Of a stretch of 64,000 nt of DNA, positions 1-54,634 are shown in pieces. Within the stretch, counting starts at the first letter, position 1, and every line of letters begins with the position of its first letter. This stretch comes from an uncultured Pseudobdellovibrionaceae bacterium (GTDB lineage Bacteria; Bdellovibrionota; FAC87; UBA2466): assembly GCA_964616705.1 (NCBI GenBank), contig CAZTRP010000015.1, positions 1,705 through 65,704 on the forward strand, in the 5' to 3' direction. Position numbers and translations under genes: made by a program. The notes under the pieces are model-generated. The model saw nothing but the letters and a program-made list of their open reading frames with translations, had not been told where the DNA came from and did not search any database.

Positions 1-461
1 ATCTCAGGATCTGGAAAAGTAAGTTGCGGATCCACTTCGTACCGGTACGTCATGAGATTTCTATCTCGAAAATCTACAATATCCGGTATCTCGGTCGTAG
101 GTCCTTCTTCGATAAAAGCGGAGCGAATTACTTTTAACAGGGCGTGAAAACATCGGACGGCGGCAAATCGAGAAGGTGGAGCTGGAGGCGGCGTTGGCAA
201 TCTCAGTTCAGAGGCAAGCGCCATTCGTGCACGCGAATACCGGTGCTTGCTATGCTCCATATCGAAAAGAGGTTGGCCCCCTGCGAAGGGATGGAATTTT
301 CCTATCTCCTGCGCAAAGAGCGCGTCATTGGCGGGTCCAGATCCTGAGCCATACCAAGCTGGTTTGGCGCCATAACTCCGCACTGCTAGCAGAGAAGCGG
401 TGACGATTAAGATTCGTAAGATAGGCACAAATACGCTCCAAAGGGTCGCGCACCCTACCAT
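1..461 (-). CDS. Partial CDS (N-terminus in window at ATG 461..459, C-terminus beyond left edge); hypothetical membrane/secreted protein
   Basis: Hand translation of the minus strand gives an open frame of more than 150 codons: MVGCATLWSVFVPILRILIVTASLLAV...IPDIVDFRDRNLMTYRYEVDPQLTFPDPE. The N-terminus is hydrophobic (signal/TM-like). There is no stop before position 1. It is absent from the ORF track because it runs off the window. Confidence 0.45.
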   Translation of the reverse strand, partial: MVGCATLWSVFVPILRILIVTASLLAVRSYGAKPAWYGSGSGPANDALFAQEIGKFHPFAGGQPLFDMEHSKHRYSRARMALASELRLPTPPPAPPSRFAAVRCFHALLKVIRSAFIEEGPTTEIPDIVDFRDRNLMTYRYEVDPQLTFPDPE

Positions 462-491
462 TTTTTGTAGGGAAGCAGCAAGTTACCCGGT

Positions 492-770
492 TTAAGCAAT
501 TGAAATTATGTGGAATATCGGATGCGCTTGAAAAGCGCCTTTAACATTTATCCTTCCAACAGGATGACTGCGAAGCGGTGGTGGAGATTCAAACATGTAA
601 TGTAGTTCGGCCTCGCGGTTTTTTAGCGCCCAGGATTTAGCGAGAATTTCTAAAGAGATCCTGGCCACGTGGCGGACGAGCCTGTTCGGTTTGTCGGCTT
701 GAAGAAGAAGTGTACCGCCATCGAAACAATGAAATCGATCAAAGAGCTGTAAGCCCTTCCCTGGGTTCAT
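492..770 (-). CDS. Hypothetical small protein (92 aa)
   Basis: ORF track. It is in the same frame as the downstream partial CDS and separated from it by two TAA stops. No recognisable motif. Confidence 0.3.
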   Translation of the reverse strand: MNPGKGLQLFDRFHCFDGGTLLLQADKPNRLVRHVARISLEILAKSWALKNREAELHYMFESPPPLRSHPVGRINVKGAFQAHPIFHIISIA

Positions 771-3161: not shown

Positions 3162-3623
3162 ATGACCCTCACAACCCAAAGAAAAAACCAAGATCTGACT
3201 ATTTCAATTACTGTGAGCAAAACACCCTCTGAAGCTTACCAAGCCATTAAGAACGTCAAAGCCTGGTGGATGGGCGAAGTAAAAGGCAATGCGGATACGG
3301 TTGGTTCAAGGTTTACGTATCGGTACAAAGATTTTCACAGGAGTAGTCAAAAAGTGACTGAACTCATTCCAGACAAGAAAATTACTTGGCATGTGGAGGA
3401 AGCAATCTTGAGCTTCGCTAAGAACACAAAAGAGTGGGTAGGAACGGATATCGTTTTCGAAATCGCGACCAATGGCGAAAATACTGAGATTCGGTTTACT
3501 CATTACGGCCTTACTCCCGAAGCAGAATGCTTTGAAGCGTGTTCTGGCGGCTGGGAATTCTACATCACCAAAAGCCTCAAGAACCTTTTGATGAAGGGCA
3601 AAGGTCTCGATCCAGGATTTTAG
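3162..3623 (+). CDS. SRPBCC-superfamily protein (AHSA1/polyketide-cyclase-like)
   Basis: 153 aa. Sequence pattern (WW..., TYRYKDF..., beta-rich) resembles the Aha1/SRPBCC fold. Confidence 0.6.
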   Translation: MTLTTQRKNQDLTISITVSKTPSEAYQAIKNVKAWWMGEVKGNADTVGSRFTYRYKDFHRSSQKVTELIPDKKITWHVEEAILSFAKNTKEWVGTDIVFEIATNGENTEIRFTHYGLTPEAECFEACSGGWEFYITKSLKNLLMKGKGLDPGF

Positions 3624-4182: not shown

Positions 4183-4972
4183 ACGCGCCGATGGTTTAAC
4201 GTTTTATGCAGGATTCAGTTTACTAGCACTGTCTGCACTCACTCTAGTGGGCGTATTCACCGATTTACGGCTAGTTGCCGGACAAAATATATGGATAAAG
4301 CCATTTAAATTTAGCGTTTCAGTCGCTGTTTTTTTGTTAACTGTCGGTTGGATTATTCAGTACCTACCAAAACGAATTAAATCTAAATTTTCAGTGGCGT
4401 TTGTCTCCATGATGGCGGTGGAAATAGTGACAATCTACATTCAGGCACTCAGAGGGCGGCCATCCCATCACAATTTCTCCACCCCACTTGATGGTTTCTT
4501 GTACGCATCAATGGGTCTCGCCATTGGCATTAACACGATACTGCTTTTAGTACTTTTATTTCAGATAACTAAGAACACCCACAAACTTCCTCTTACCTAC
4601 CTGAGATCGATCCAATACGGGATCTTTCTATCAATAATAGGCAGTTTGATTGGCGTTATTATGTCTGCACACAAGGCACACACGTTCGGTGGAGTCGATG
4701 GCGGACAAGGAATTCCGTTTTTTAATTGGAGTACGCTTTGGGGGGATTTGAGATTTGCGCATTTTATCGGACTTCATGGCCTGCAGATATTAGTCGGCCT
4801 TGGATTTTTACTTAGTTTTACTTTTAGGGAGAAAATCAGCGATTCGCTAAGCCGCCTCGCCGTTACCTTCGTATTCCTACTTTTGTTTGCATTCACGGTC
4901 TCGGCGACAGTTACGGCCATTCGAGGCTTACCGTTTTTTTATCCGCTTGAGCTTCAAAGTCTGCAAAATTAG
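4160..4972 (+). CDS. Polytopic membrane protein, unknown function
   Basis: ORF track protein with about 8 hydrophobic segments. I placed the start at the ATG-CAG-ATG pair at 4160/4166, giving a 23-bp overlap with the upstream gene. Confidence 0.55.
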   Translation: MQMLQLFRRADGLTFYAGFSLLALSALTLVGVFTDLRLVAGQNIWIKPFKFSVSVAVFLLTVGWIIQYLPKRIKSKFSVAFVSMMAVEIVTIYIQALRGRPSHHNFSTPLDGFLYASMGLAIGINTILLLVLLFQITKNTHKLPLTYLRSIQYGIFLSIIGSLIGVIMSAHKAHTFGGVDGGQGIPFFNWSTLWGDLRFAHFIGLHGLQILVGLGFLLSFTFREKISDSLSRLAVTFVFLLLFAFTVSATVTAIRGLPFFYPLELQSLQN

Positions 4973-5606: not shown

Positions 5607-6779
5607 TTATTGCAGAATCTTTTCCTTCAGAAAGCGATGAATCAAAGTAAGTGCGTAGGCAGGACTATAATACCCAACGGCCTTGCCCTGCCCGTCAAAC
5701 TGGGTCCACGGGGTAAGTACATCGTGTCGGGCTCCGGGAATAATATGTAACTCAACGTGAGGCATGCGGATCGCGAGTTCTTTGAGCCACGTAACCGTTT
5801 TTGGTGGTACTTCGGGATCATTTTCTCCAAGCAAGATCAAGGTTGGTTTCCCAAAGAAAGGGTCGGAAGCATCTGCCCAGGTCATTTCATTAACCAGGCC
5901 CGATGCCCAATGAAAAGCGTCCCAGTTGGCTAAAAATGCCCTTCCAGCGAGCAGCTGAAAACGAGCTTCACTCTCTGGACCACCCCCAGCAACCCCGGGG
6001 ATCACGGGACCAATCATAATGATTCCGTCAGCCAGATCTGGATATCTTGAATTCACTTCCCCAAGAAACGCACAACCTGCGCTCTGACAAAGGGGGACTT
6101 GTTTGGATTGAGTGGGTCTTGTTTCTACTAGGTACCTTGATAAGGTCGCCGCCGTCGCAGGAAGCGTGCCCCATAAACCATGGTTCCCGGTGCTTTTTAC
6201 ATGGCCATAAAAATTTCCAGACATTGGCCAGTCAAACGCATCACATGCTACGGTCGCAGGCTTCAACTTCTGCTTTTTGAGAAGTGCTCGCGCTTGCTGA
6301 AAGCCACTTTCGGCAGGATTGGATAAAATCGGGAACCAACGCGTTCCCGTTCCCGCGTGGCTCGTTTCCAAGCTACCGATTCCGCCGATTATCGGCATGT
6401 GAATTTCCGCACGTTCTCGGGATTCAGAATCCGACAAGTAACGAACGGTATTGGCCCAAGGAAGATACTGGGCCAATACATCCCGAAGGACCTTGCCTCT
6501 ATAGGACGTTTGATAAATTTCTTCCGAGGACACTTCTCCAAATGCAAACGCAACGACCGTTTCAGCACAGGATTCTGTTCCAGGACCGGAGCCGTCGGAA
6601 GGAGCCTTGAGCAGTTCGATCCGGCCGCGACTCTCTCGGTGCTTAGTTGCTTCCGATTGGTACCAGGCTTCGAGGAAGGCGCCGTCGTTGTCGCTGCCTT
6701 TGCCCGAAGAGCAAACAAAGGCACAAACGACATACGATAAAAAAACGAGTTTTTCCCACCGGCCTATCATAGGAGGCAC
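5607..6779 (-). CDS. Alpha/beta-hydrolase-fold lipoprotein (esterase/depolymerase-like)
   Basis: Lipoprotein-like N-terminus (…VCSSGKG). C-terminal LILLGENDPEVP...HIIPGARHDV resembles the acid/His end of alpha/beta hydrolases. Confidence 0.55.
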   Translation of the reverse strand: MPPMIGRWEKLVFLSYVVCAFVCSSGKGSDNDGAFLEAWYQSEATKHRESRGRIELLKAPSDGSGPGTESCAETVVAFAFGEVSSEEIYQTSYRGKVLRDVLAQYLPWANTVRYLSDSESRERAEIHMPIIGGIGSLETSHAGTGTRWFPILSNPAESGFQQARALLKKQKLKPATVACDAFDWPMSGNFYGHVKSTGNHGLWGTLPATAATLSRYLVETRPTQSKQVPLCQSAGCAFLGEVNSRYPDLADGIIMIGPVIPGVAGGGPESEARFQLLAGRAFLANWDAFHWASGLVNEMTWADASDPFFGKPTLILLGENDPEVPPKTVTWLKELAIRMPHVELHIIPGARHDVLTPWTQFDGQGKAVGYYSPAYALTLIHRFLKEKILQ

Positions 6780-11935: not shown

Positions 11936-12820
11936 ATGGGTCCATGGATAAACTATCACCACCTGTACTACTTCAAGGTCATCGCTGAAGAAGACAGCGT
12001 ATCTAAAGCCGCACAAAGACTTCGGTTGGGGCAGCCCACACTAAGCGCGCAACTCAAGCAATTCGAGGAAGCCCTCGGGGTAGCACTTTTCGAGCGCCAC
12101 CACAAAAAGCTGGTGCTTACCGAACAAGGAAAGATCGCTCTCGGCTACGCCCGTAGCATCTTTACCATGGGCGCCGAAATGTATGAGGTGCTTCACGATC
12201 GTTTCGTGCCCCAGAAGATTTCTATTCATATCGGCGCACTCGATAGCATCGCTAAACAGGTTATTTTGCAGATGGTGGAAACCGCTTTTAAAGTAGCACC
12301 CTGCCAGGTCAGCCTCTCTGAGGGAAGAGCCGATGAACTCATCCGTGAACTCACTGCCCATCGGATCGATTTGCTCATTAGCAATTTCCTGCCAACAGCG
12401 ACGAACGCTAAGGGCCTCTCGCATAGAGTCGTTTCGAAGAAAGTTGTTTCTGTTTACGCCGCCCCGACCTTTAAGAAACTGAAGAATAGTTTTCCCCGCG
12501 GACTAGTAGGACAACCTTTTATACTTCCCACCTACGACAGCAGGCTGAGATATGACATCGACCATTGGTTCAAGCTCAATGAGGTGGCTCCTAACATAGT
12601 GGCCGAAAGCCAAGACATTGCAATGAATAAGCTCATGGCGATTAGCGGGTTAGGTTTAATTCCTGCAGCGCCTCACGCGGTAAGTCGCCAACTGCAGTCG
12701 GGCGAATTGATTGAGGTCGGGCAACTTAAAGGCATTCATGAGGAGCTTTTTCTAATATCCGCACACAGAAAAATCGAGAACCCTATCGCCGCCAAGCTAA
12801 TGAGCCAGTTCACAGTATAG
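11936..12820 (+). CDS. LysR-family transcriptional regulator, NhaR-like
   Basis: The N-terminal INYHHLYYFKVIAEEDSVSKAA HTH closely mirrors E. coli NhaR (INYNHLYYFWHVYKEGS). LysR substrate-binding domain follows. Confidence 0.8.
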   Translation: MGPWINYHHLYYFKVIAEEDSVSKAAQRLRLGQPTLSAQLKQFEEALGVALFERHHKKLVLTEQGKIALGYARSIFTMGAEMYEVLHDRFVPQKISIHIGALDSIAKQVILQMVETAFKVAPCQVSLSEGRADELIRELTAHRIDLLISNFLPTATNAKGLSHRVVSKKVVSVYAAPTFKKLKNSFPRGLVGQPFILPTYDSRLRYDIDHWFKLNEVAPNIVAESQDIAMNKLMAISGLGLIPAAPHAVSRQLQSGELIEVGQLKGIHEELFLISAHRKIENPIAAKLMSQFTV

Positions 12821-12901
12821 ATTTATACAATTCAAAAGACCGCTTTTATCTATTTTAGGTATTCATAGAAACTCCGTAAGCTACTTACATGGAGAAAAGA
12901 A

Positions 12902-13549
12902 ATGAATAACCTGCTACCTGGTCTGAGAAAGTTTTCCGAGGAAGTTTTCCCCCAACAACGCGATTTATTCGATGGGCTTTCCTTGGGCCAAAAACCACAC
13001 ACGCTACTTATCACTTGCTCCGATTCCCGAATCGATCCCAACTTGGTAACGCAAACCAAACCCGGAGAGATATTTGTAGTCAGGAATGCTGGCAACATCG
13101 TTCCGCCTTTCGGATCCTCTCGAGGCGGTGAAGAAGCGGCAATTGAATTTGCCATAGACGGACTCAAAGTAAGCAATATCGTTATTTGTGGGCACTCTCA
13201 TTGTGGCGCTATGGCGGGTCTAATGGGAAAGGTAAATCTCGATGCCCTACCCTCCGTGAAAGAGTGGTTGGGGCACGCACAGGCCACCAAACGAAGGCTG
13301 GCTAGCAACGAAAAAGAAGCTTCGCTGACTCAGACGGTTGAAGGGAACGTTCTGGTTCAAGCCGACAACTTGAAAACTCACCCCGCAGTTTCGGCGGCAC
13401 TGCGACAAGGTCGGGTGCGGATCTTTGGTTGGGTGTATCAGTTCGAAACTGGATTGATTTCACTCTACGACCAGAAACAAAAAACATACGTACCCTCAAC
13501 AGAAGCAAGGGAAGCGCTTACTTCAGACGGTGCAAGGTTCTGTCTGTAG
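12902..13549 (+). CDS. Beta-class carbonic anhydrase
   Basis: CSDSR...VRNAGN...GHSHCGA zinc-ligand motifs. Confidence 0.85.
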   Translation: MNNLLPGLRKFSEEVFPQQRDLFDGLSLGQKPHTLLITCSDSRIDPNLVTQTKPGEIFVVRNAGNIVPPFGSSRGGEEAAIEFAIDGLKVSNIVICGHSHCGAMAGLMGKVNLDALPSVKEWLGHAQATKRRLASNEKEASLTQTVEGNVLVQADNLKTHPAVSAALRQGRVRIFGWVYQFETGLISLYDQKQKTYVPSTEAREALTSDGARFCL

Positions 13550-13563
13550 ATTAGGAGTCGCAA

Positions 13564-14508
13564 ATGAGTGCACTAATCAGGCAAAAGGCCGCACTTGCTG
13601 AAGCGCCTAGGTCGGAGGTGATCTCCGGACTTACGAATCAAGAAGAAGCCAAGAACTTCTTTCGCACGGCTATCGCGTGGAAGGGATCCGTTACCCCCCG
13701 GGTTCTTCCGCGCGTAGCCGTGGCAGCGGTTTACTCCCTCGGAGTTGTAGTCCTTTCCACTTTTTTTCCTGATTTCACATTCTCAATCACACCGTTCGAG
13801 TATTCCGGGGCGGTTCTCGGCCTTCTGCTGGTCCTCCGCGTTAATGCAGGAATGGATCGGTGGTGGGAGGCAAGAAAGATTTGGGGCAGTATTGTAAATC
13901 AAAGCAGAAACCTCGCGATTATTGGCTACGAATACACACCGACCGAAAGACAAGACAAAGTGCATTTTCTGAGATGGGTCGCTTCTTGGCCCCACGTTAT
14001 GCGAGAGTCGCTCAGAAAGGAAAACTCATTGGTTGAAGTGGAAAACTTGCTTGGCGGAAACAACGCTAAATCCATCCGTTCGGCAGGCCACATGCCTACT
14101 TTCGTTGGCTCCAGAATCGCACAGCTTTTATTTGAAATGAGAACGAAAGGGCTCAATGACTTTTCCTTTCAGTGTGCCGAAAGAGAAAGAGCCTTGTTGA
14201 TTGATGCGATTGGCGCCTGTGAGCGAATTCGCAATACACCTATCCCGTTTGTTCTAGCAATCAAGGTGCGCCGATTTATCTTGCTGTTTCTGTTACTACT
14301 CCCCTTGGCTCTTGTAGATAGATTGGGTTGGCTTACACCTCTTGTGGTTTGCCTTGCGGCCTATCCTCTCTTTTCCCTGGATGAAATCGGAGCTGAGTTG
14401 CAGAACCCCTTTTCGCCGCGAAACCTCAGTCACCTCCCCCTAGGTTCTATTTGCTCGACGATCGAGCGGAACGTCCTGAGTGTTGGTTCAACGGGCAATG
14501 GTGATTAA
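13564..14508 (+). CDS. Bestrophin-family (YneE/UPF0187) ion channel
   Basis: RVNAGMDRWWEARKIWGSIVNQSRNL core motif and TM topology of bacterial bestrophins. Confidence 0.7.
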   Translation: MSALIRQKAALAEAPRSEVISGLTNQEEAKNFFRTAIAWKGSVTPRVLPRVAVAAVYSLGVVVLSTFFPDFTFSITPFEYSGAVLGLLLVLRVNAGMDRWWEARKIWGSIVNQSRNLAIIGYEYTPTERQDKVHFLRWVASWPHVMRESLRKENSLVEVENLLGGNNAKSIRSAGHMPTFVGSRIAQLLFEMRTKGLNDFSFQCAERERALLIDAIGACERIRNTPIPFVLAIKVRRFILLFLLLLPLALVDRLGWLTPLVVCLAAYPLFSLDEIGAELQNPFSPRNLSHLPLGSICSTIERNVLSVGSTGNGD

Positions 14509-14654
14509 ACAAGAATCACTGAGCTCGAGCGACCAGCGCCACTCGACTCGAACAAAACATGGTCGCATAATTATTCTTATATAATCATTACTTACCAAGC
14601 GATCCTTGCGCTTAACTACTGTTGTGGTAAGTGTCTCGCCGGAATAGGGAACCT

Positions 14655-17210
14655 ATGCTGGCCGATAAAACAAAATTAGCTACTGTATGGGCTATTTTCT
14701 CGGTCTACTCCCATCTCTCGGTCGCAGCGCCAAACTACCCACAAATTGACATTCTAAGCGATGCAGAAGCAAACCGCCTGGCTTCAAGTCTTCAGGCGAC
14801 GCTAGCCAAGTCGGAGATGGCCTCGCTTTCCGAGCTTCAACACTCTTCCCCAAGCATTTATTGCGATCCGAAAACGCAAAGGTTTACGAGCTGGCAAGCG
14901 CAGTTTGCCATGGATCTACGAAGCGCTCCGGAGGAGTTCCGGTCCAAGTATTTTGCTTACACCAAAATCGCTTCAGAAAGAGCACTAGCCGAAGCACTAA
15001 AGGACCTCGACGTTATTGCACTCGAGAGCATGCCCCTTCTATTTCCGGCAACTCCGGCGGCGAAGCAAGCGTTGATGACGCTCCTGCAGCTATCGGTAGA
15101 CAATGGTTCCCCTACCGCAGTTCTCTATGCTGAAGTTATTCGCGAGCACTTCCCCACTATTTGCAATCAAGATCCGATTGGGTGTTCTTTTCTGTCCGAA
15201 GCGTACAGGCAAAATGGAGAGTCAGAAATAGCAGCAGCGCTTGCAACACAGTATCCAACTGGTCCAACTGTCATTTCCGCCACCCCTTCGTCAAAAACCG
15301 AAATTCGTTTTTTTGTCCCCTTGCTACCAAACCCGAATGCAGAGGAGGTAGACGTCGCTAAGGAACCTCAGAGATCTCGAGCCAGATACTTTCTATTACT
15401 TTTAGGAAATAGAGCCAGAGTTGTTTGCGCTGAGACGAAAAAGGATGTGGCTTCGGCTCTTGACCCAAATCATTTTAAGCTGCTGCGAAATCAAAATAAT
15501 GCCTTCCCCTTTCGCTTCGTTGACCAATGGGAAAGGGAGGAGCTTCTAGGGGAACTTATTCGTAGGAACTCTTCGAATGGGAACTTAGACGCCTCGCCGC
15601 TACTTACAAAGCTTTCTGCCAATCAGCTAAGGATCCAAGTACAAAACTACCTTGAACCTCCCGCAGTTCAATCCGTATCGAATGCCTCGAACTATTCCCC
15701 CCAAGACGATTCGATCGCTAGAATTGCTCTAGCAACAGCCGTGACCGCGTTCCGGACTGAAGCGGCAAAGACGATCATTGCCTGGTTAGAAGAGTTGGAT
15801 GCTGGAAAGCAAGAATTCATCCCCCTACTCTTTCTTCTATCGGACATGGGATCGAGAATGCAACTTCTCGCCCGAAGCGATCAGATATCTATTTCGAAGT
15901 TACTGGGCAGAATTGCGAAAGATGTAGGCTCTGAACTAAACCGGAAACTTTCAACGTCCGACCACGCCTTATCAACGCTGACCCAACTCAATCTCTCGGG
16001 CAGCACAAGAGTTATAAGGCAAAATTACCAAGAAATTTATTCAAAAAGGGAAAACTTGTTTCATCTTTCCCTGCAGGCGCTGCGTTATTTGGCAAGAAGG
16101 GACCAGCCAGAGGAACAGCGCCAATTTGCCTTCGAAGAATTGAATAGATTGCAGACTTGGACATGGAATAGTTACAACGCAAATAAAACCTTCAATTCAC
16201 TATTTGAACTCCATACTTCTTACGAGGCCATTGCCGAACCCCTTGCTCTATTTGGTGCGAAAGCCAAGCCACTATTGACTAAGATGGTGAAGCAAACATC
16301 CGGCCCCTTCGCCAATGGACGAAACAGTGAAATCTTGGAAAGTCTATTTATGGCCGACAACAGTGCCATGGCCGACTATCTCATAACTGCGAATCAACGC
16401 TCTGAAACAGGAGCAACAGCCCCTACTCTTGCGTCTTTGGTATCCGAATTCGCGATGCGGAACGATCCCAATCTAGTGATTACAGATGAAACCGCACAAC
16501 TCCTCTCGAATATTCTCTTGGAAAGGGGCAAAGCGAAGCACGTCGATTTCTACGAGCATAAGTTCACCGCTGAGGCGCTGGCCAAATATGCTCCCTCATC
16601 ATTTTACGAACTAAGTTCGAGGCTTACCCCACTACAAAAACGTTTTGTTTATCCCTACGGATGTAGTGCCTTGGCCCATTACCTACTTTCAGCGCCGCTC
16701 TCCGCGGTTAAGCTCTGGACGGAGGGACAAGCTGTCTGTTCAGAAGAGAGAGAACTGCACCAAGAGTTGGGAAACGCGCTCGCATCAGGATTCCCTATTT
16801 CGAAGAGCGCTGTACAAACTATTTTTGAGTCCCCCTACTATTCCAAGTTTTTTGAAAGTGCCCCCGCCATCTTTTTTCGTCTCGTAAATGCCACTGGCAC
16901 ATCATTGAATATATCGGAATCCATTCGGGCTCGAGCATCCGAACTGGCACGCAACACCAATGAAAGCACGGAGCGCAGAGTCGAAAGTTTTCTATTCTTA
17001 GCGCACCACGCGTGGAAAGAACACGCCGCACTTTTTCTAGATATCGTGGAGCGCGACACCAACCCCCAAGTTCGTAGGATTGCCGCAAGTGCGTTTGTCT
17101 CAAGGAGCAAGGAAGCCACCCAAGAAATAATCGCGCGAGCAAAACAGATGAGCGAGAATATCTTCCTGGACTACCGTTACGAATTTGCGCATTGGTTTTC
17201 GAAACAATGA
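14655..17210 (+). CDS. Large secreted alpha-helical protein with C-terminal HEAT-like repeat
   Basis: Start moved to the ATG at 14655 (MLADKTKLATVWAIFSVYSHLSVAAP, signal-like). 851 aa, predominantly helical. C-terminal DTNPQVRRIAASAF HEAT-like motif. No other domain recognised. Confidence 0.55.
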   Translation: MLADKTKLATVWAIFSVYSHLSVAAPNYPQIDILSDAEANRLASSLQATLAKSEMASLSELQHSSPSIYCDPKTQRFTSWQAQFAMDLRSAPEEFRSKYFAYTKIASERALAEALKDLDVIALESMPLLFPATPAAKQALMTLLQLSVDNGSPTAVLYAEVIREHFPTICNQDPIGCSFLSEAYRQNGESEIAAALATQYPTGPTVISATPSSKTEIRFFVPLLPNPNAEEVDVAKEPQRSRARYFLLLLGNRARVVCAETKKDVASALDPNHFKLLRNQNNAFPFRFVDQWEREELLGELIRRNSSNGNLDASPLLTKLSANQLRIQVQNYLEPPAVQSVSNASNYSPQDDSIARIALATAVTAFRTEAAKTIIAWLEELDAGKQEFIPLLFLLSDMGSRMQLLARSDQISISKLLGRIAKDVGSELNRKLSTSDHALSTLTQLNLSGSTRVIRQNYQEIYSKRENLFHLSLQALRYLARRDQPEEQRQFAFEELNRLQTWTWNSYNANKTFNSLFELHTSYEAIAEPLALFGAKAKPLLTKMVKQTSGPFANGRNSEILESLFMADNSAMADYLITANQRSETGATAPTLASLVSEFAMRNDPNLVITDETAQLLSNILLERGKAKHVDFYEHKFTAEALAKYAPSSFYELSSRLTPLQKRFVYPYGCSALAHYLLSAPLSAVKLWTEGQAVCSEERELHQELGNALASGFPISKSAVQTIFESPYYSKFFESAPAIFFRLVNATGTSLNISESIRARASELARNTNESTERRVESFLFLAHHAWKEHAALFLDIVERDTNPQVRRIAASAFVSRSKEATQEIIARAKQMSENIFLDYRYEFAHWFSKQ

Positions 17211-17252: not shown

Positions 17253-17921
17253 CTAATCATCGTGAAAGTCGACCTTGCCGGTTGCTAAATCATAGACCGC
17301 CTCTACCACCCTAAAACTGCCCGTTTCTTTCAGGCCGATCAAAATAGGACTTTGAGAGAATACCTGCTTGGCCGTCCGCGTGACATGACTGTGGGTGACT
17401 AAGAAAGTAAGTTTCGATGGTTCCACCTGGGCAGCCGAGGCGACTGAAGACTCAACAGAAGGCAAAATCCGTGCGACCAATTCCTGAAGATTATCGCTCG
17501 GCATGGGCTGGCCGCTTTTAAAATGCTCAATGGCGGCAGTAATTGCCCCACACTGGGTGTGCCCCATAACGACACAAAGCTGGGTCCGAAAAGTAGAAGC
17601 CGCGAATTCGATACTTGCCAATAGAGACGGTGCTAAGACGTTGCCTGCGACCCGAATTACGAATAAATCTCCCAAGCCTTGATCGAAGAGAATTTCTGCA
17701 GGGGCCCTAGAGTCGGAACAGGCCAGAATAATAGCAAATGGAGACTGCCCCTTTTCGACCAGTTCCTTTCTAAGCAAGACGGTGGTCATTGCCTCAACCG
17801 ACCTCAATCCCCCGGCGTACCGGGCATTGCCTTGCTTCAATCGATCTAGTGCCTCAGCTGCGGTTATTTGTCCTTGCATAATCTCTCTCTCACGAATTCC
17901 AATAGGTGCCTTTAGAGGCAT
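17253..17921 (-). CDS. Beta-class carbonic anhydrase (second copy)
   Basis: CSDSRAPAE...IRVAGNV...GHTQCGA motifs. Confidence 0.85.
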   Translation of the reverse strand: MPLKAPIGIREREIMQGQITAAEALDRLKQGNARYAGGLRSVEAMTTVLLRKELVEKGQSPFAIILACSDSRAPAEILFDQGLGDLFVIRVAGNVLAPSLLASIEFAASTFRTQLCVVMGHTQCGAITAAIEHFKSGQPMPSDNLQELVARILPSVESSVASAAQVEPSKLTFLVTHSHVTRTAKQVFSQSPILIGLKETGSFRVVEAVYDLATGKVDFHDD

Positions 17922-52174: not shown

Positions 52175-54634
52175 TCACCAGCCAATGACCTGGCTTGGGA
52201 AATACACATTTGAAAGAGTGTTATTGCCGACCTGTCCCCAGTTGTTGCGGCCCCAGCAGTACAAGACAGATTGCTTCATAGCGCATGAGCTATCCTGTCC
52301 TTCCTTGGATACCAGCTCGACGTTTGCGTTCATTCCGTAAACTAAGACCGGTACGTTGCTGCCAATTGTGTTTCCAATTCCTAACTGGCCATCTGAGTTA
52401 TTACCCCAGCAATACAGAGCACCGGATTTGACAGCGCAGGTGTGGTCCGTACCACCGCCGATTGCTGTAACCCCGATATCCATTCCCAAAGGCACAACAG
52501 GCACCATTCGGTTTGCGACAGAACCATCACCCAAAACACCTTGAGCACCCTGACCCCAGCACTTCATCGTGGTGTTCTGCAAAGCGCACGTGCGATAAGA
52601 CAGAGCAGCAACCGCGCTCACGCCTCCACTAAACGCTGGAATCGCGTAGGGTGCATTTCGATTTTGCGTGCTTCCATCTCCAACTTGCCCTTGGGCGTTG
52701 TATCCCCAGCACTTCAACCCGCCATATTGAACCGCGCAGGTCGTACTTCGACTTGTTACAGTTTGGTTTGAAATCGATACGGAACTGACGCCCGACTCCA
52801 ATCCAAAAATCGGCACGGGTGTGAGCGCTGTCCCAGTCGACCCGTCTCCCACCTGCCCGTACGCATTAAAGCCCCAACATTTCAGCCCACCGTTCTGGAT
52901 TGCGCAGGTGGTATAACCGCCAGCCGCTACCGAAGTAACGCCTGAACTCATACCGACGACTGCTACAGGACTCAGGCGCAAGGCAGCAGTACCATCGCCG
53001 AGATTTCCGTAAGGGTTGTAGCCCCAACAAAAGAGTCCACCGTTTTTAATTGCACACCCATGAAGCAAGCCCGCTGCGACGGAAGTAACACCGGTGTCCA
53101 TGCCAACCACTCGGGTGGGAACGCTCTTCGTTGCAACAGTGCCGTTACCCAACCCACCCAGCGTATTCTGACCCCAACAATAAGCGGCTCCGGCTCGTAC
53201 CGCACACTGAAATGACTCACCTGAAGCAACTATGTCGTAGCTGCCGGAGGAAATCCCTGTAAACGTCATCGATGAGAGGTAATTTGCGCCGTAGCTATCT
53301 TGGAAAGTTAAATTGAAACTCGCATTATAGACGCCCGCGACTGAGGGATTGAAAACAAAACCAAGAGAGCAGGAAGATCCTGCCGAAAGAGAAAGCTGCT
53401 GGGTTGAGTACCAGGGACAGGTATCTGACTGAACTTTAAAAACGGCATTTGAAACTTGAACCGAAATCAGGCGCGCTTGCCCAGGCCCCAAGTTATTGAT
53501 TACCACTGGAATAACCGATGAAGTGGTTCCAGGAGGAACTGTTCCAAAGTTCAGTCCCGTGCTTGACGATGAAATTGAAACCGCTGCACCGACCTGCGCG
53601 GTTCCTTGCAAAGAAACTACGGCAGTCCGTGAAGACTGCGAGGTAGTAGAATACGCAATCGATAGGCTTGCGCTTCTTAGTCCGGTCGAGCCGGCAGAAG
53701 CGTCAAACTTCACCGTAACCGTACATGAGTCACCGCCGGCTAGAGTTCCAGCGCAAGCATCGGTGAGAATAGTAAAGTCAGAAGCACCTACAATGGTGGC
53801 CGCTTGAAGTGACATGCTAAGTGACCCGGAGTTGGTTGCTACGATACTACGTGTCACTGGGCTTGATGAAGAAACGGAAGTACCGAACTGCACCATCGTA
53901 CCGGGGAAACTCAGGACACCTTCGTTGCCCACTTGAGCTACGGCGTTACAAGTTGCTACACGAGCTGAGTTAGCAGCATCCTGAATATCGAAGGCAAAAA
54001 CGTGCTGCCCTTGAGCAGACAAACTAATTTGTAGATTCACGCCCGAAGCAACCGCGCTAGGAACCGGAGTAGAAGAGCTAAGAGTCGCGCCTCCACCTGA
54101 CATATAGCGATAGGCAGTTACCCTAAATGTGGACGCTCCAGAAGCCGAAATGGCCACGTTTGCCGTAACGGTCGGCGAGGCAGAACTTATCGCAAGCGAC
54201 GAAGGCGTAATGGCCGTGGCACAGCTAATCGCCCCTGCCCCTGCATTGACTACGTTGAACTGCACCATCGCCGTCGAAACGCGTGTGGGGAAGTTCACAT
54301 CCTGAACTTGAACCGTCTCAATCACAGATTGGGCCGAGCTATAGGTGTGCGAGTAGTACAAAGGTGAAGCCTGGGAGAAAGTAGTGCCTTGAGCCGAGAA
54401 GGTGTACTGACCCGAGCAACCAGAAGCTTCCAAACGAAAAAATACTTCCTGACCAACTACGGCATCGGCCGAGCTCACCCGAGCAAGGCTCACGGACAGC
54501 GGACTCGCACAAGTCGGATTCACAGTGCTATTAGAAGTCGTGCTTAAGCTAGACCGACGAACCGCGCAGGATGAAAGTAGTCCCATTGCAAGAAGTGCAA
54601 ATCCGGCTAAACGAAAAGTTTTGGAAGGCAGCAT
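52175..54634 (-). CDS. Secreted RCC1-repeat (alpha-tubulin-suppressor-like) protein with N-terminal Ig-like/Ser-Thr-rich region
   Basis: Signal peptide. The C-terminal half has seven or more GxGxxGQLGDG-type repeats (CWGxNxxGQVGDGS...). The N-terminal half is Ser/Thr/Ala-rich and beta-like. Confidence 0.75.
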   Translation of the reverse strand: MLPSKTFRLAGFALLAMGLLSSCAVRRSSLSTTSNSTVNPTCASPLSVSLARVSSADAVVGQEVFFRLEASGCSGQYTFSAQGTTFSQASPLYYSHTYSSAQSVIETVQVQDVNFPTRVSTAMVQFNVVNAGAGAISCATAITPSSLAISSASPTVTANVAISASGASTFRVTAYRYMSGGGATLSSSTPVPSAVASGVNLQISLSAQGQHVFAFDIQDAANSARVATCNAVAQVGNEGVLSFPGTMVQFGTSVSSSSPVTRSIVATNSGSLSMSLQAATIVGASDFTILTDACAGTLAGGDSCTVTVKFDASAGSTGLRSASLSIAYSTTSQSSRTAVVSLQGTAQVGAAVSISSSSTGLNFGTVPPGTTSSVIPVVINNLGPGQARLISVQVSNAVFKVQSDTCPWYSTQQLSLSAGSSCSLGFVFNPSVAGVYNASFNLTFQDSYGANYLSSMTFTGISSGSYDIVASGESFQCAVRAGAAYCWGQNTLGGLGNGTVATKSVPTRVVGMDTGVTSVAAGLLHGCAIKNGGLFCWGYNPYGNLGDGTAALRLSPVAVVGMSSGVTSVAAGGYTTCAIQNGGLKCWGFNAYGQVGDGSTGTALTPVPIFGLESGVSSVSISNQTVTSRSTTCAVQYGGLKCWGYNAQGQVGDGSTQNRNAPYAIPAFSGGVSAVAALSYRTCALQNTTMKCWGQGAQGVLGDGSVANRMVPVVPLGMDIGVTAIGGGTDHTCAVKSGALYCWGNNSDGQLGIGNTIGSNVPVLVYGMNANVELVSKEGQDSSCAMKQSVLYCWGRNNWGQVGNNTLSNVYFPSQVIGW

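Follow-up and report, generated by a model that had tools for sequence, protein, structure and literature searches.

What does a bestrophin channel do in a bacterium, and why should its gene stand directly behind one for a carbonic anhydrase (CA)? The question is raised by a locus within a 64,000-nucleotide stretch of DNA (hereafter the window; positions 1,705 to 65,704 of contig CAZTRP010000015.1, GenBank assembly GCA_964616705.1) from an uncultured Pseudobdellovibrionaceae bacterium. Three genes lie there head to tail on the forward strand: a LysR-type regulator of 294 amino acids (aa) (11936-12820; Pfam HTH_1 and LysR_substrate), a beta-class CA (beta-CA) of 215 aa (12902-13549; Pfam Pro_CA) and a bestrophin-family (Bestrophin_2, KpBest-like) membrane channel protein of 314 aa (13564-14508; Pfam Bestrophin_2). 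An initial annotation of the stretch had already given these positions, the gene order and the spacing of 81 bp between the LysR and beta-CA genes and of 14 bp between the beta-CA and bestrophin genes, and the open reading frames (ORFs) and Pfam matches agree with it. An AGGAG ribosome-binding site (13553-13557) is located inside the 14-bp gap, and translation of the bestrophin is probably coupled to that of the CA. As far as can be read from the DNA, the beta-CA and bestrophin genes form a predicted two-gene operon behind a LysR-type promoter, and the role of the bacterial bestrophin in such an operon is probably bicarbonate and proton handling.

The pairing is not peculiar to this genome. 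A scan of a genome collection returned at least 593 relatives of the bestrophin; the best 80 of these (40-72% identity) were examined together with three loci from exact look-ups, making 83. The 80 relatives belong to Bdellovibrionota/Oligoflexales, Legionella, Methylococcales, Planctomycetota, Melainabacteria/Obscuribacterales, Archangium and Abditibacterium. A beta-CA gene occurred at 500 bp or less from the bestrophin gene in 27 of the 83 loci, in 25 of them on the same strand, and about four CA ORFs were found elsewhere in the flanks (about 10 kb per locus). The CA-linked loci came from Bdellovibrionota, Planctomycetota, Methylococcales, Legionella, Melainabacteria and Archangium (Myxococcota), representing at least five phylum-level groups, and the linked CAs fell into five clades upon clustering at 45% identity. 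The adjacency pointed out in the initial annotation is thus conserved in related genomes. The CA gene is upstream of the bestrophin gene in most loci and downstream in Methylobacter and in a Pirellulaceae genome, and the two genes overlap or abut in several cases (loci L004, L007-L013, L048 and others). The existence of five CA clades and of both gene orders argues for repeated selection for the pairing, not for a single inherited ancestral cluster. When the approximately 1,390 neighbouring ORFs were clustered all against all, the real recurrent families were the beta-CA, the NhaR-related LysR regulator and a small ArsR-like regulator (six loci); no other CA class, transporter or carboxylase appeared as a recurrent neighbour in this clustering, and the other recurrent clusters were discarded as spurious antisense ORFs in GC-rich genomes.

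The NhaR-related LysR gene was found upstream of the bestrophin operon in ten of the 83 loci, distributed in three phyla, and also in L173 and L174. The ten comprise loci of Bdellovibrionota, one from a Methylococcaceae genome and three from Planctomycetota, which have a Usp-like gene in the place of the CA. The trio of LysR, CA and bestrophin genes was found again, with other genes around it, in L004, L006, L007, L013, L034, L173 and L174, the last two showing the exact co-directional trio between unrelated flanks. In six loci (e.g. L019 4597-4962 and L074 3895-4278) a small ArsR-type helix-turn-helix regulator adjoins the CA and bestrophin genes or lies between them, and Methylobacter loci have a divergent TetR gene upstream of the bestrophin-CA pair. 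The LysR, ArsR and TetR variants thus place the pair under several different regulators. In the Planctomycetota loci L038 and L068, the Usp-like gene (about 270-350 aa) is located between a divergent LysR gene and the bestrophin gene.

The channel protein matches Pfam PF25539 (Bestrophin_2) with 237.9 bits against a cutoff of 27 over residues 29-305, and aligns in full length with KpBest (residues 31-307, E 2e-33); more distant matches include the plant thylakoid channel VCCN1 and a bestrophin-rhodopsin fusion. An AlphaFold2 model built with 21 homologues had a predicted local distance difference test (pLDDT) score of 85, and the top Protein Data Bank (PDB) matches of this model in Foldseek were all KpBest chains, with target TM-scores of 0.83-0.86 and a root-mean-square deviation of about 3 A. 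By analogy, the protein is presumably a pentameric inner-membrane channel of the KpBest type. In KpBest, the neck consists of I62, I66 and F70 and the aperture of I180 (PMC8496536); the aligned residues are A83, L87 and L91 for the neck and F200 for the aperture. The four positions are hydrophobic across 80 subfamily members (A/V/L, L, L/F and F, respectively). The pore-lining residues, whose possible lack the initial annotation had raised, are retained; the first neck residue (A83) is smaller than its counterpart in known channels. Glu79 (E79; window 13798-13800) lies one turn of the helix above the neck, and 74 of the 80 members have Glu there; the equivalent position is Ser58 in KpBest and Tyr72 in hBest1. 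E79 might determine selectivity, sense pH or bind a metal.

KpBest is a Na+ channel; its neck reads I-I-F, without the Phe that stands in the middle of the I-F-F motif of eukaryotes (PMC8496536). Altering the charge at the first neck position switches the selectivity of both KpBest and hBest1, the I76E change converting hBest1 to Na+ selectivity (PMC8496536). Eukaryotic bestrophins pass HCO3- besides Cl- (PMC8496536; PMC6708349). Selectivity of the channel described here is ambiguous from sequence, because a hydrophobic A/L/L neck is set against the E79 ring.

The CA of the operon (PF00484, Pro_CA, 155.7 bits, well in excess of the cutoff) has intact zinc-site motifs, CxDxR (CSDSR) starting at residue 39 and HxxC (HSHCG) at residue 98, and no signal peptide was predicted in it; judged by these motifs it is a cytoplasmic beta-CA with an intact zinc site and predicted activity. 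Both motifs were kept, and a signal peptide was absent, in all the bestrophin-linked CAs examined. The operon CA belongs to CA clade 1, together with bestrophin-linked CAs of Planctomycetota and Melainabacteria. In L038, a beta-CA with a twin-arginine (Tat) signal is encoded 4 kb upstream (50-766, plus strand), the sole predicted periplasmic CA found near a bestrophin in these loci. The CA of L006 (5365-6004), from a Bdellovibrionota genome, is broken into two ORFs (178 and 117 aa) that do not share a frame, representing either an assembly frameshift or a pseudogene.

The pair appears to be expressed from one promoter region, in answer to the earlier concern that its genes might have separate promoters: the CA and bestrophin genes share a single such region, frequently overlap in related genomes, and show no predicted terminator between them; in the window, no intrinsic terminator was predicted between any genes of the LysR-CA-bestrophin cluster. 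Within and bordering the 81-bp spacer, three elements were recognized on the plus strand. The first is a degenerate T-N11-A inverted repeat (ATAG-N7-CAAT, 12817-12831), a putative LysR recognition site that was located by promoter alignment and overlaps the LysR stop codon. The second is the core element TTATCTATTTTA (12846-12857), a putative LysR activation site overlapping the -35 region, conserved in 24 loci and present as a single occurrence in the window. The third is the -10-like hexamer TAAGCT (12877-12882), 19 nt past the core. Relative to a predicted transcription start near 12889, the T-N11-A box is thus centred at about -65 and the core lies at about -35.

The same arrangement was found in an anchored alignment of 22 promoters and in L173 and L174, which were examined in addition. 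Common to these 24 loci is a T-N11-A palindrome, followed after about 15 nt by the core TTATCYATTTTA and after about 19 nt by a -10-like hexamer. At the position of the box, related loci, L173 and L174 included, have the palindromes ATCG-N7-CGAT or TTCG-N7-CGAA, of the general form (A/T)TCG-N7-CGA(T/A), and the aligned hexamers elsewhere are GATACT, TAAAGT and GATAAT. The core occurs upstream of CA-bestrophin operons as well as directly 3' of orthologous LysR genes. The spacer is, as predicted from this alignment, a classical LysR-type promoter with a -65/-35 layout, a putative start site and putative LysR binding. A simple sigma-70 scan did not call the TAAGCT promoter, since its -35 region is weak, as expected of an activator-dependent promoter. 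In L008, the element is present and no LysR gene lies within 4 kb, which indicates regulation in trans. Two further candidates were dropped: an inverted repeat TCTAT-N11-ATAGA (12849-12869) as the operator, absent as a conserved feature in related loci, and a sigma-28-type promoter from the CCGTAAAG / GCCGATAA segment, the spacing of which to any TAAA -35 motif misfits. A scan of the whole window at the Rfam gathering threshold found no RNA family, and the explanation by a riboswitch thus falls away.

The regulator possesses HTH_1 and LysR_substrate domains scoring far above the Pfam cutoffs. Its best NCBIfam model is NhaR (NF008284), with 133.1 bits, 51 bits ahead of the runner-up CynR (82 bits); the equivalog cutoff of 219 is not reached, and identity to E. 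coli NhaR is 26% over 287 residues (E 7e-31). Because of this score and this identity, the protein is assigned to an NhaR-related clade and is neither an orthologue nor an equivalog of NhaR. The description of its N-terminus as unusually close to NhaR holds locally, as the motif INYHHLYYF equals INYNHLYYF of NhaR at eight of nine positions and the first 60 aligned residues share about 42% identity, but it does not extend to the whole protein, and the label 'NhaR-like' makes the kinship look closer than it is. NhaR itself is a regulator responding to high salt and high pH (PMC6307784). That the Na+/H+ antiporter is absent from the locus was confirmed, with no homologue of NhaA, nor of SbtA or TerC, in the 64-kb window. 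Orthologues of the regulator with 64-75% identity are abundant in Bdellovibrionota.

To what else is this regulator linked? The LysR clade was surveyed in 84 loci (L088-L171), 80 of them metagenomic, and no NhaA homologue was present in any of the 84. A TerC-family gene was the commonest neighbour, in about 35 loci, either divergent or downstream (e.g. L089 3861-4883 and L090 3871-4884), with LysR identities of 34-66%. No description of a TerC-LysR regulator-target pair was found in the literature, in a search that was not aimed at that pair. In the divergent TerC-LysR spacer of L089, a near-copy of the core, TTATCTATTTGA, is present on the TerC-facing strand (4930-4950, minus), which suggests that TerC is controlled by the same LysR.

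In most close-orthologue loci the promoter element sits 3' of the LysR stop codon, and its cargo varies. It may be an HPF/S30AE-like gene alone, a baeRF3 gene with an HPF-like gene, a CBS/HPF-like/SbtA-family operon (L089; Sbt_1 316 bits), an HPF-like gene with the CA and bestrophin genes (L006, which bridges the SbtA-type and CA-bestrophin arrangements), or genes for a small membrane protein, HtpX, CA and bestrophin (L009). Such varied cargo behind one promoter element makes the CA-bestrophin operon one cargo of a broader regulon, and the regulator does not serve that operon exclusively. Beta-CAs were also found beside TerC and LysR in L113 and L121, SbtA and a CA near a related LysR in L125, and a TMEM175 K+ channel near the orthologous LysR in L089. 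The occurrence of an SbtA-family transporter in the equivalent slot of L089 ties the regulon to bicarbonate/Na+ chemistry. Alx, the E. coli TerC homologue, is alkaline-induced (PMC10197570), and this property, along with the high-salt and high-pH role of NhaR, points to alkaline or ionic stress. The LysR promoter element defines a Bdellovibrionota regulon that includes TerC, HPF-like, baeRF3, SbtA and CA-bestrophin genes; no description of it was found in the literature, the searches not having been aimed at the regulon.

How might the pair work? In the model proposed here, which is tentative and is given somewhat less than an even chance, the CA hydrates CO2, the channel lets HCO3- out and the protons stay, contributing to pH homeostasis under alkaline conditions. 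The NhaR-related LysR would activate the CA-bestrophin operon from the promoter in the 81-bp spacer; the cytoplasmic CA would catalyze the reversible conversion of CO2 and H2O, from metabolic or incoming CO2, into HCO3- and H+; and the bestrophin would offer one of the CA products a conductive path through the inner membrane. HCO3- would then exit electrophoretically, with one proton per CO2 kept inside at the expense of the membrane potential. The net result would be acidification of the cytoplasm, the same outcome as that of electrogenic Na+/H+ antiport at high pH, and such an outcome fits a regulator related to NhaR. The direction of flux is derived from the passive nature of the channel: with a membrane potential that is inside-negative, net anion flux would be outward. 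A passive channel cannot accumulate HCO3-, and uptake of dissolved inorganic carbon (DIC) is therefore thermodynamically disfavoured with respect to efflux of HCO3- with retention of the proton. A wider proposal, more doubtful than the model itself, is that the bestrophins of this subfamily are bicarbonate channels that constitute, with the beta-CA, a widespread and hitherto unrecognised 'bicarbonate valve' driven by the membrane potential and turning respiratory CO2 into retained protons; in this valve the CA might form a transport metabolon by docking at the cytoplasmic vestibule of the channel.

Several points weigh against HCO3- efflux. To our knowledge, KpBest is the only characterised bacterial bestrophin, and it is a Na+ channel; the carboxylate ring of E79 might also favour cations. 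SbtA-type transporters, one of which belongs to the regulon, import HCO3-, a direction opposite to that of the proposed efflux. About two thirds of the bestrophin subfamily have no adjacent CA and stand alone or beside TetR or ArsR regulators, which makes the pairing optional. None of the 80 metagenomic LysR loci contained a bestrophin, so the LysR is not devoted to the operon; its commonest partners were TerC, HPF-like and baeRF3 genes, and the promoter may report a general stress regulon and not a pH or bicarbonate one.

Among the alternatives, the one that survives best is that of a KpBest-like cation channel, allowing re-entry of Na+ (K+, H+) to aid antiport cycling or adjustment of the potential at high pH or salt, while the CA separately makes protons; the two would then cooperate in pH homeostasis without HCO3- passing through the channel. 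In agreement with this idea, the A/L/L neck resembles the I-I-F neck of KpBest in lacking the middle Phe of the eukaryotic motif, the near-invariant E79 lies just above the neck, the I76E change flips hBest1 to Na+ selectivity, and the regulator is kin to the Na+-responsive NhaR. The L089 locus adds, near an orthologous LysR, the TMEM175 K+ channel and the SbtA-family gene, which Pfam places in a Na+-dependent bicarbonate transporter superfamily. A cation channel, however, leaves the specific partnering with CAs of five clades, in tight and often overlapping operons, unexplained, and no linked Na+/H+ antiporter was present in any locus examined. This reading is considered unlikely.

Quite unlikely as well, and next in order, is a function in inorganic-carbon supply, with the LysR inducing the CA at low CO2 or high pH, so that CO2 is captured in the form of HCO3- for the benefit of carboxylases, and the bestrophin admitting external HCO3-, as SbtA does elsewhere. 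Such a role would agree with the SbtA-family gene that L089 has behind this LysR and promoter element and with the SbtA and CA genes of L125. Heterotrophs at ambient CO2 need a CA or a bicarbonate transporter (PMC8567241, PMC8552792), and the algal BST1-3 proteins are required for growth at low CO2 (PMC6708349). Nevertheless, given the inside-negative potential, a passive anion channel would leak the HCO3- made by the CA, and CA alone is enough in an E. coli-type physiology, in which the channel would be superfluous or harmful. The organism, moreover, is a heterotroph: no RuBisCO, carboxysome or pyrenoid context was found in the 64-kb window, the rest of which is an ordinary heterotroph chromosome encoding 2-oxoglutarate dehydrogenase, aldehyde dehydrogenases, aspartokinase and an ABC/HlyD/OEP efflux system.

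Could the two proteins be functionally uncoupled, merely co-captured downstream of a strong, regulated promoter as members of a LysR stress regulon that comprises TerC, HPF-like, baeRF3 and HtpX genes? The wide variation of cargo behind the promoter element, the mainly TerC-paired LysR clade and the frequency of bestrophins that are alone or next to TetR/ArsR regulators would all be accommodated. CA-bestrophin pairs also exist, however, without the LysR or the promoter element, in Planctomycetota, in Melainabacteria and in the TetR-bestrophin-CA arrangement of Methylobacter, with CAs of other clades and in other gene orders; this indicates selection on the pair itself and renders the absence of coupling improbable. 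Handling of divalent metals, with the bestrophin conducting or binding Zn2+ or Mn2+ in connection with the zinc enzyme CA and the TerC exporters, is very improbable. It could draw on the role of TerC proteins in Mn2+ export or metalation, on the bound Zn that served to phase the KpBest crystals (title of PDB 4WD7) and on a possible E79 carboxylate ring at the pore entrance. Against it, the loci contain no metal-sensor regulator or metallochaperone, no bestrophin is known as a divalent-metal transporter, and the CA is cytoplasmic, other bacteria needing no dedicated zinc channel for their CA.

Each protein belongs to a known family, and the combination of CA plus channel lies outside the described bacterial DIC systems, its closest analogue being the algal BST/CA module, in which the LCIB/LCIC subunits are beta-CA-like. 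In Chlamydomonas, HCO3- passes from the n-side of the thylakoid membrane to its p-side through BST1-3, and these channels have the LCIB/LCIC complex as an interaction partner (PMC6708349). Alga and bacterium are alike in pairing a bestrophin channel with carbonic anhydrase (the lumenal CAH3 and the stromal-side LCIB/LCIC in the alga), in a proposed HCO3- path that starts on the n-side (stroma and cytoplasm, respectively) and ends on the p-side (lumen and periplasm), with a beta-CA-type protein on the n-side, and in transcriptional control linked to carbon or pH state. They differ in that the bacterial hosts are non-photosynthetic heterotrophs in which the two genes make up an operon, without RuBisCO, pyrenoid or p-side CA; CO2 delivery to RuBisCO cannot be the purpose of the bacterial pair, for whose channel HCO3- conduction is a prediction. 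As no RuBisCO context exists in the 64-kb window and the carriers are heterotrophs or methanotrophs, the bacterial pair falls outside the algal CO2-concentrating module, although it may work like it.

KpBest (PDB 4WD7/4WD8) and E. coli YneE share with the window protein the fold, the full-length alignment and the hydrophobic neck and aperture, together with a presumably cytoplasmic N-terminus and a presumed pentameric state. They differ from it in sequence, with only about 25-30% identity, in the neck (A/L/L here and I/I/F in KpBest) and in the aperture (Phe here and Ile in KpBest). The near-invariant Glu79 and the CA linkage in one third of the loci are features of the present subfamily, whereas E. 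coli yneE, a KpBest-type homologue, has no CA neighbour.

The E. coli NhaR-nhaA system is comparable in regulator family, N-terminal motif and best NCBIfam model, in the co-directional location of the regulator beside a gene for membrane ion transport and in the proposed outcome, a potential-driven acidification of the cytoplasm. It differs in that nhaA is missing from the window, the regulator comes first (the reverse of the E. coli order), and the DNA upstream of E. coli nhaA holds only weak matches to the cis-element, none of them significant and at chance level in number (six found, 3.5 expected). In the cynR-cynTSX region of E. coli, a LysR gene likewise lies beside an operon that opens with a beta-CA gene, and CynR is the second NCBIfam model for the regulator; in that region, however, cynR is divergent and the pathway is that of cyanate, whereas here there is no cyanase or CynX and the partner is an ion channel.

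The vectorial CA or DIC pumps DabAB, MpsAB and cyanobacterial NDH-1 CupA/B, and the SbtA transporter, are comparable in that a CA-type protein beside a membrane protein that translocates ions couples CO2/HCO3- chemistry to the membrane, and an SbtA-family gene takes the same slot in L089. There is no homology to DabA/DabB or SbtA, however: the proteins here are an ordinary soluble beta-CA and a channel, not a pump subunit, and accumulation of HCO3- is not expected. That the arrangement is none of the described DIC uptake systems, as first suggested, was upheld; the pair received only Pro_CA and Bestrophin_2 assignments, without homology to SbtA, BicA, Dab or Cmp and without a match in the literature. 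No report of a bacterial CA-bestrophin cluster was found in full-text literature; a review of the DIC toolkit does not mention bestrophin (PMC10880623), nor does a 2026 survey of CA genes, which includes no neighbourhood analysis.

KpBest has reportedly been studied as a structural model of a human disease channel. The linkage to CA in multiple phyla, with an identifiable regulator and operator, makes the role of prokaryotic bestrophins directly testable. If the 'bicarbonate valve' were real, prokaryotic bestrophins would gain their first physiological role, and the algal BST/LCIB/CAH3 arrangement would have a plausible ancestor in this system. Should HCO3- be the conducted ion, heterotrophs, methanotrophs, planctomycetes and non-photosynthetic relatives of cyanobacteria would possess a bicarbonate/proton route, made of CA plus channel, that does not belong to the SbtA/BicA/Dab/Cmp toolkits; it would be a bacterial counterpart of the thylakoid BST-CA module of algae, and its compact parts could serve to engineer bicarbonate fluxes.

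Among the other cargoes of the LysR promoter, a frequent one, a baeRF_family3 gene (about 380 aa) followed by one for a small HPF/S30AE-like protein, was located in L088 (5951-7518), L093 (1704-3160), L097 (5944-7119) and L103 (6026-7558), an association that suggests a link of the regulon with ribosome hibernation or rescue. The baeRF3-type loci have stem-loops just 3' of the -10-like hexamer (L088 around 5955-5985, L093 around 1700-1725, L098 around 3445-3475 and L101 around 1745-1770), in which pairing is kept and sequence differs, as in TTCGGA...TCCGGA and TAGTCAGAG...CTCTGACTA. These may represent a structured 5' leader; the leader of the window CA has no such stem-loop.

The window also encodes a second beta-CA, 2.7 kb downstream of the bestrophin gene (222 aa, 17253-17921, minus strand, Pro_CA 121 bits), cytoplasmic, outside the operon and perhaps unrelated to it. 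Its clade, CA clade 3, supplies the CA that is directly paired with the bestrophin in L004 and L007, and the genome thus holds both partner types near the channel. The bestrophin gene and that of the second CA are separated by an ORF of 859 aa (14631-17210, plus strand) with no Pfam or NCBIfam match, whose product shows a signal-like hydrophobic N-terminus and HEAT-like repeats toward the C-terminus and which was seen only in the near-identical contigs L001 and L002. Both were considered as parts of the module and set aside, since neither is kept beside the bestrophin in other genomes.

Metagenome-assembled genomes of Bdellovibrionota, Oligoflexales and Pseudobdellovibrionaceae supplied the nearest named relatives of the window proteins. 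Far from the CA-bestrophin operon and unrelated to it, the minus strand (52175-54634) encodes a protein of 819 aa that combines RCC1 repeats with HYDIN/ASH-type Ig-like domains, both of which are best known in eukaryotic proteins.

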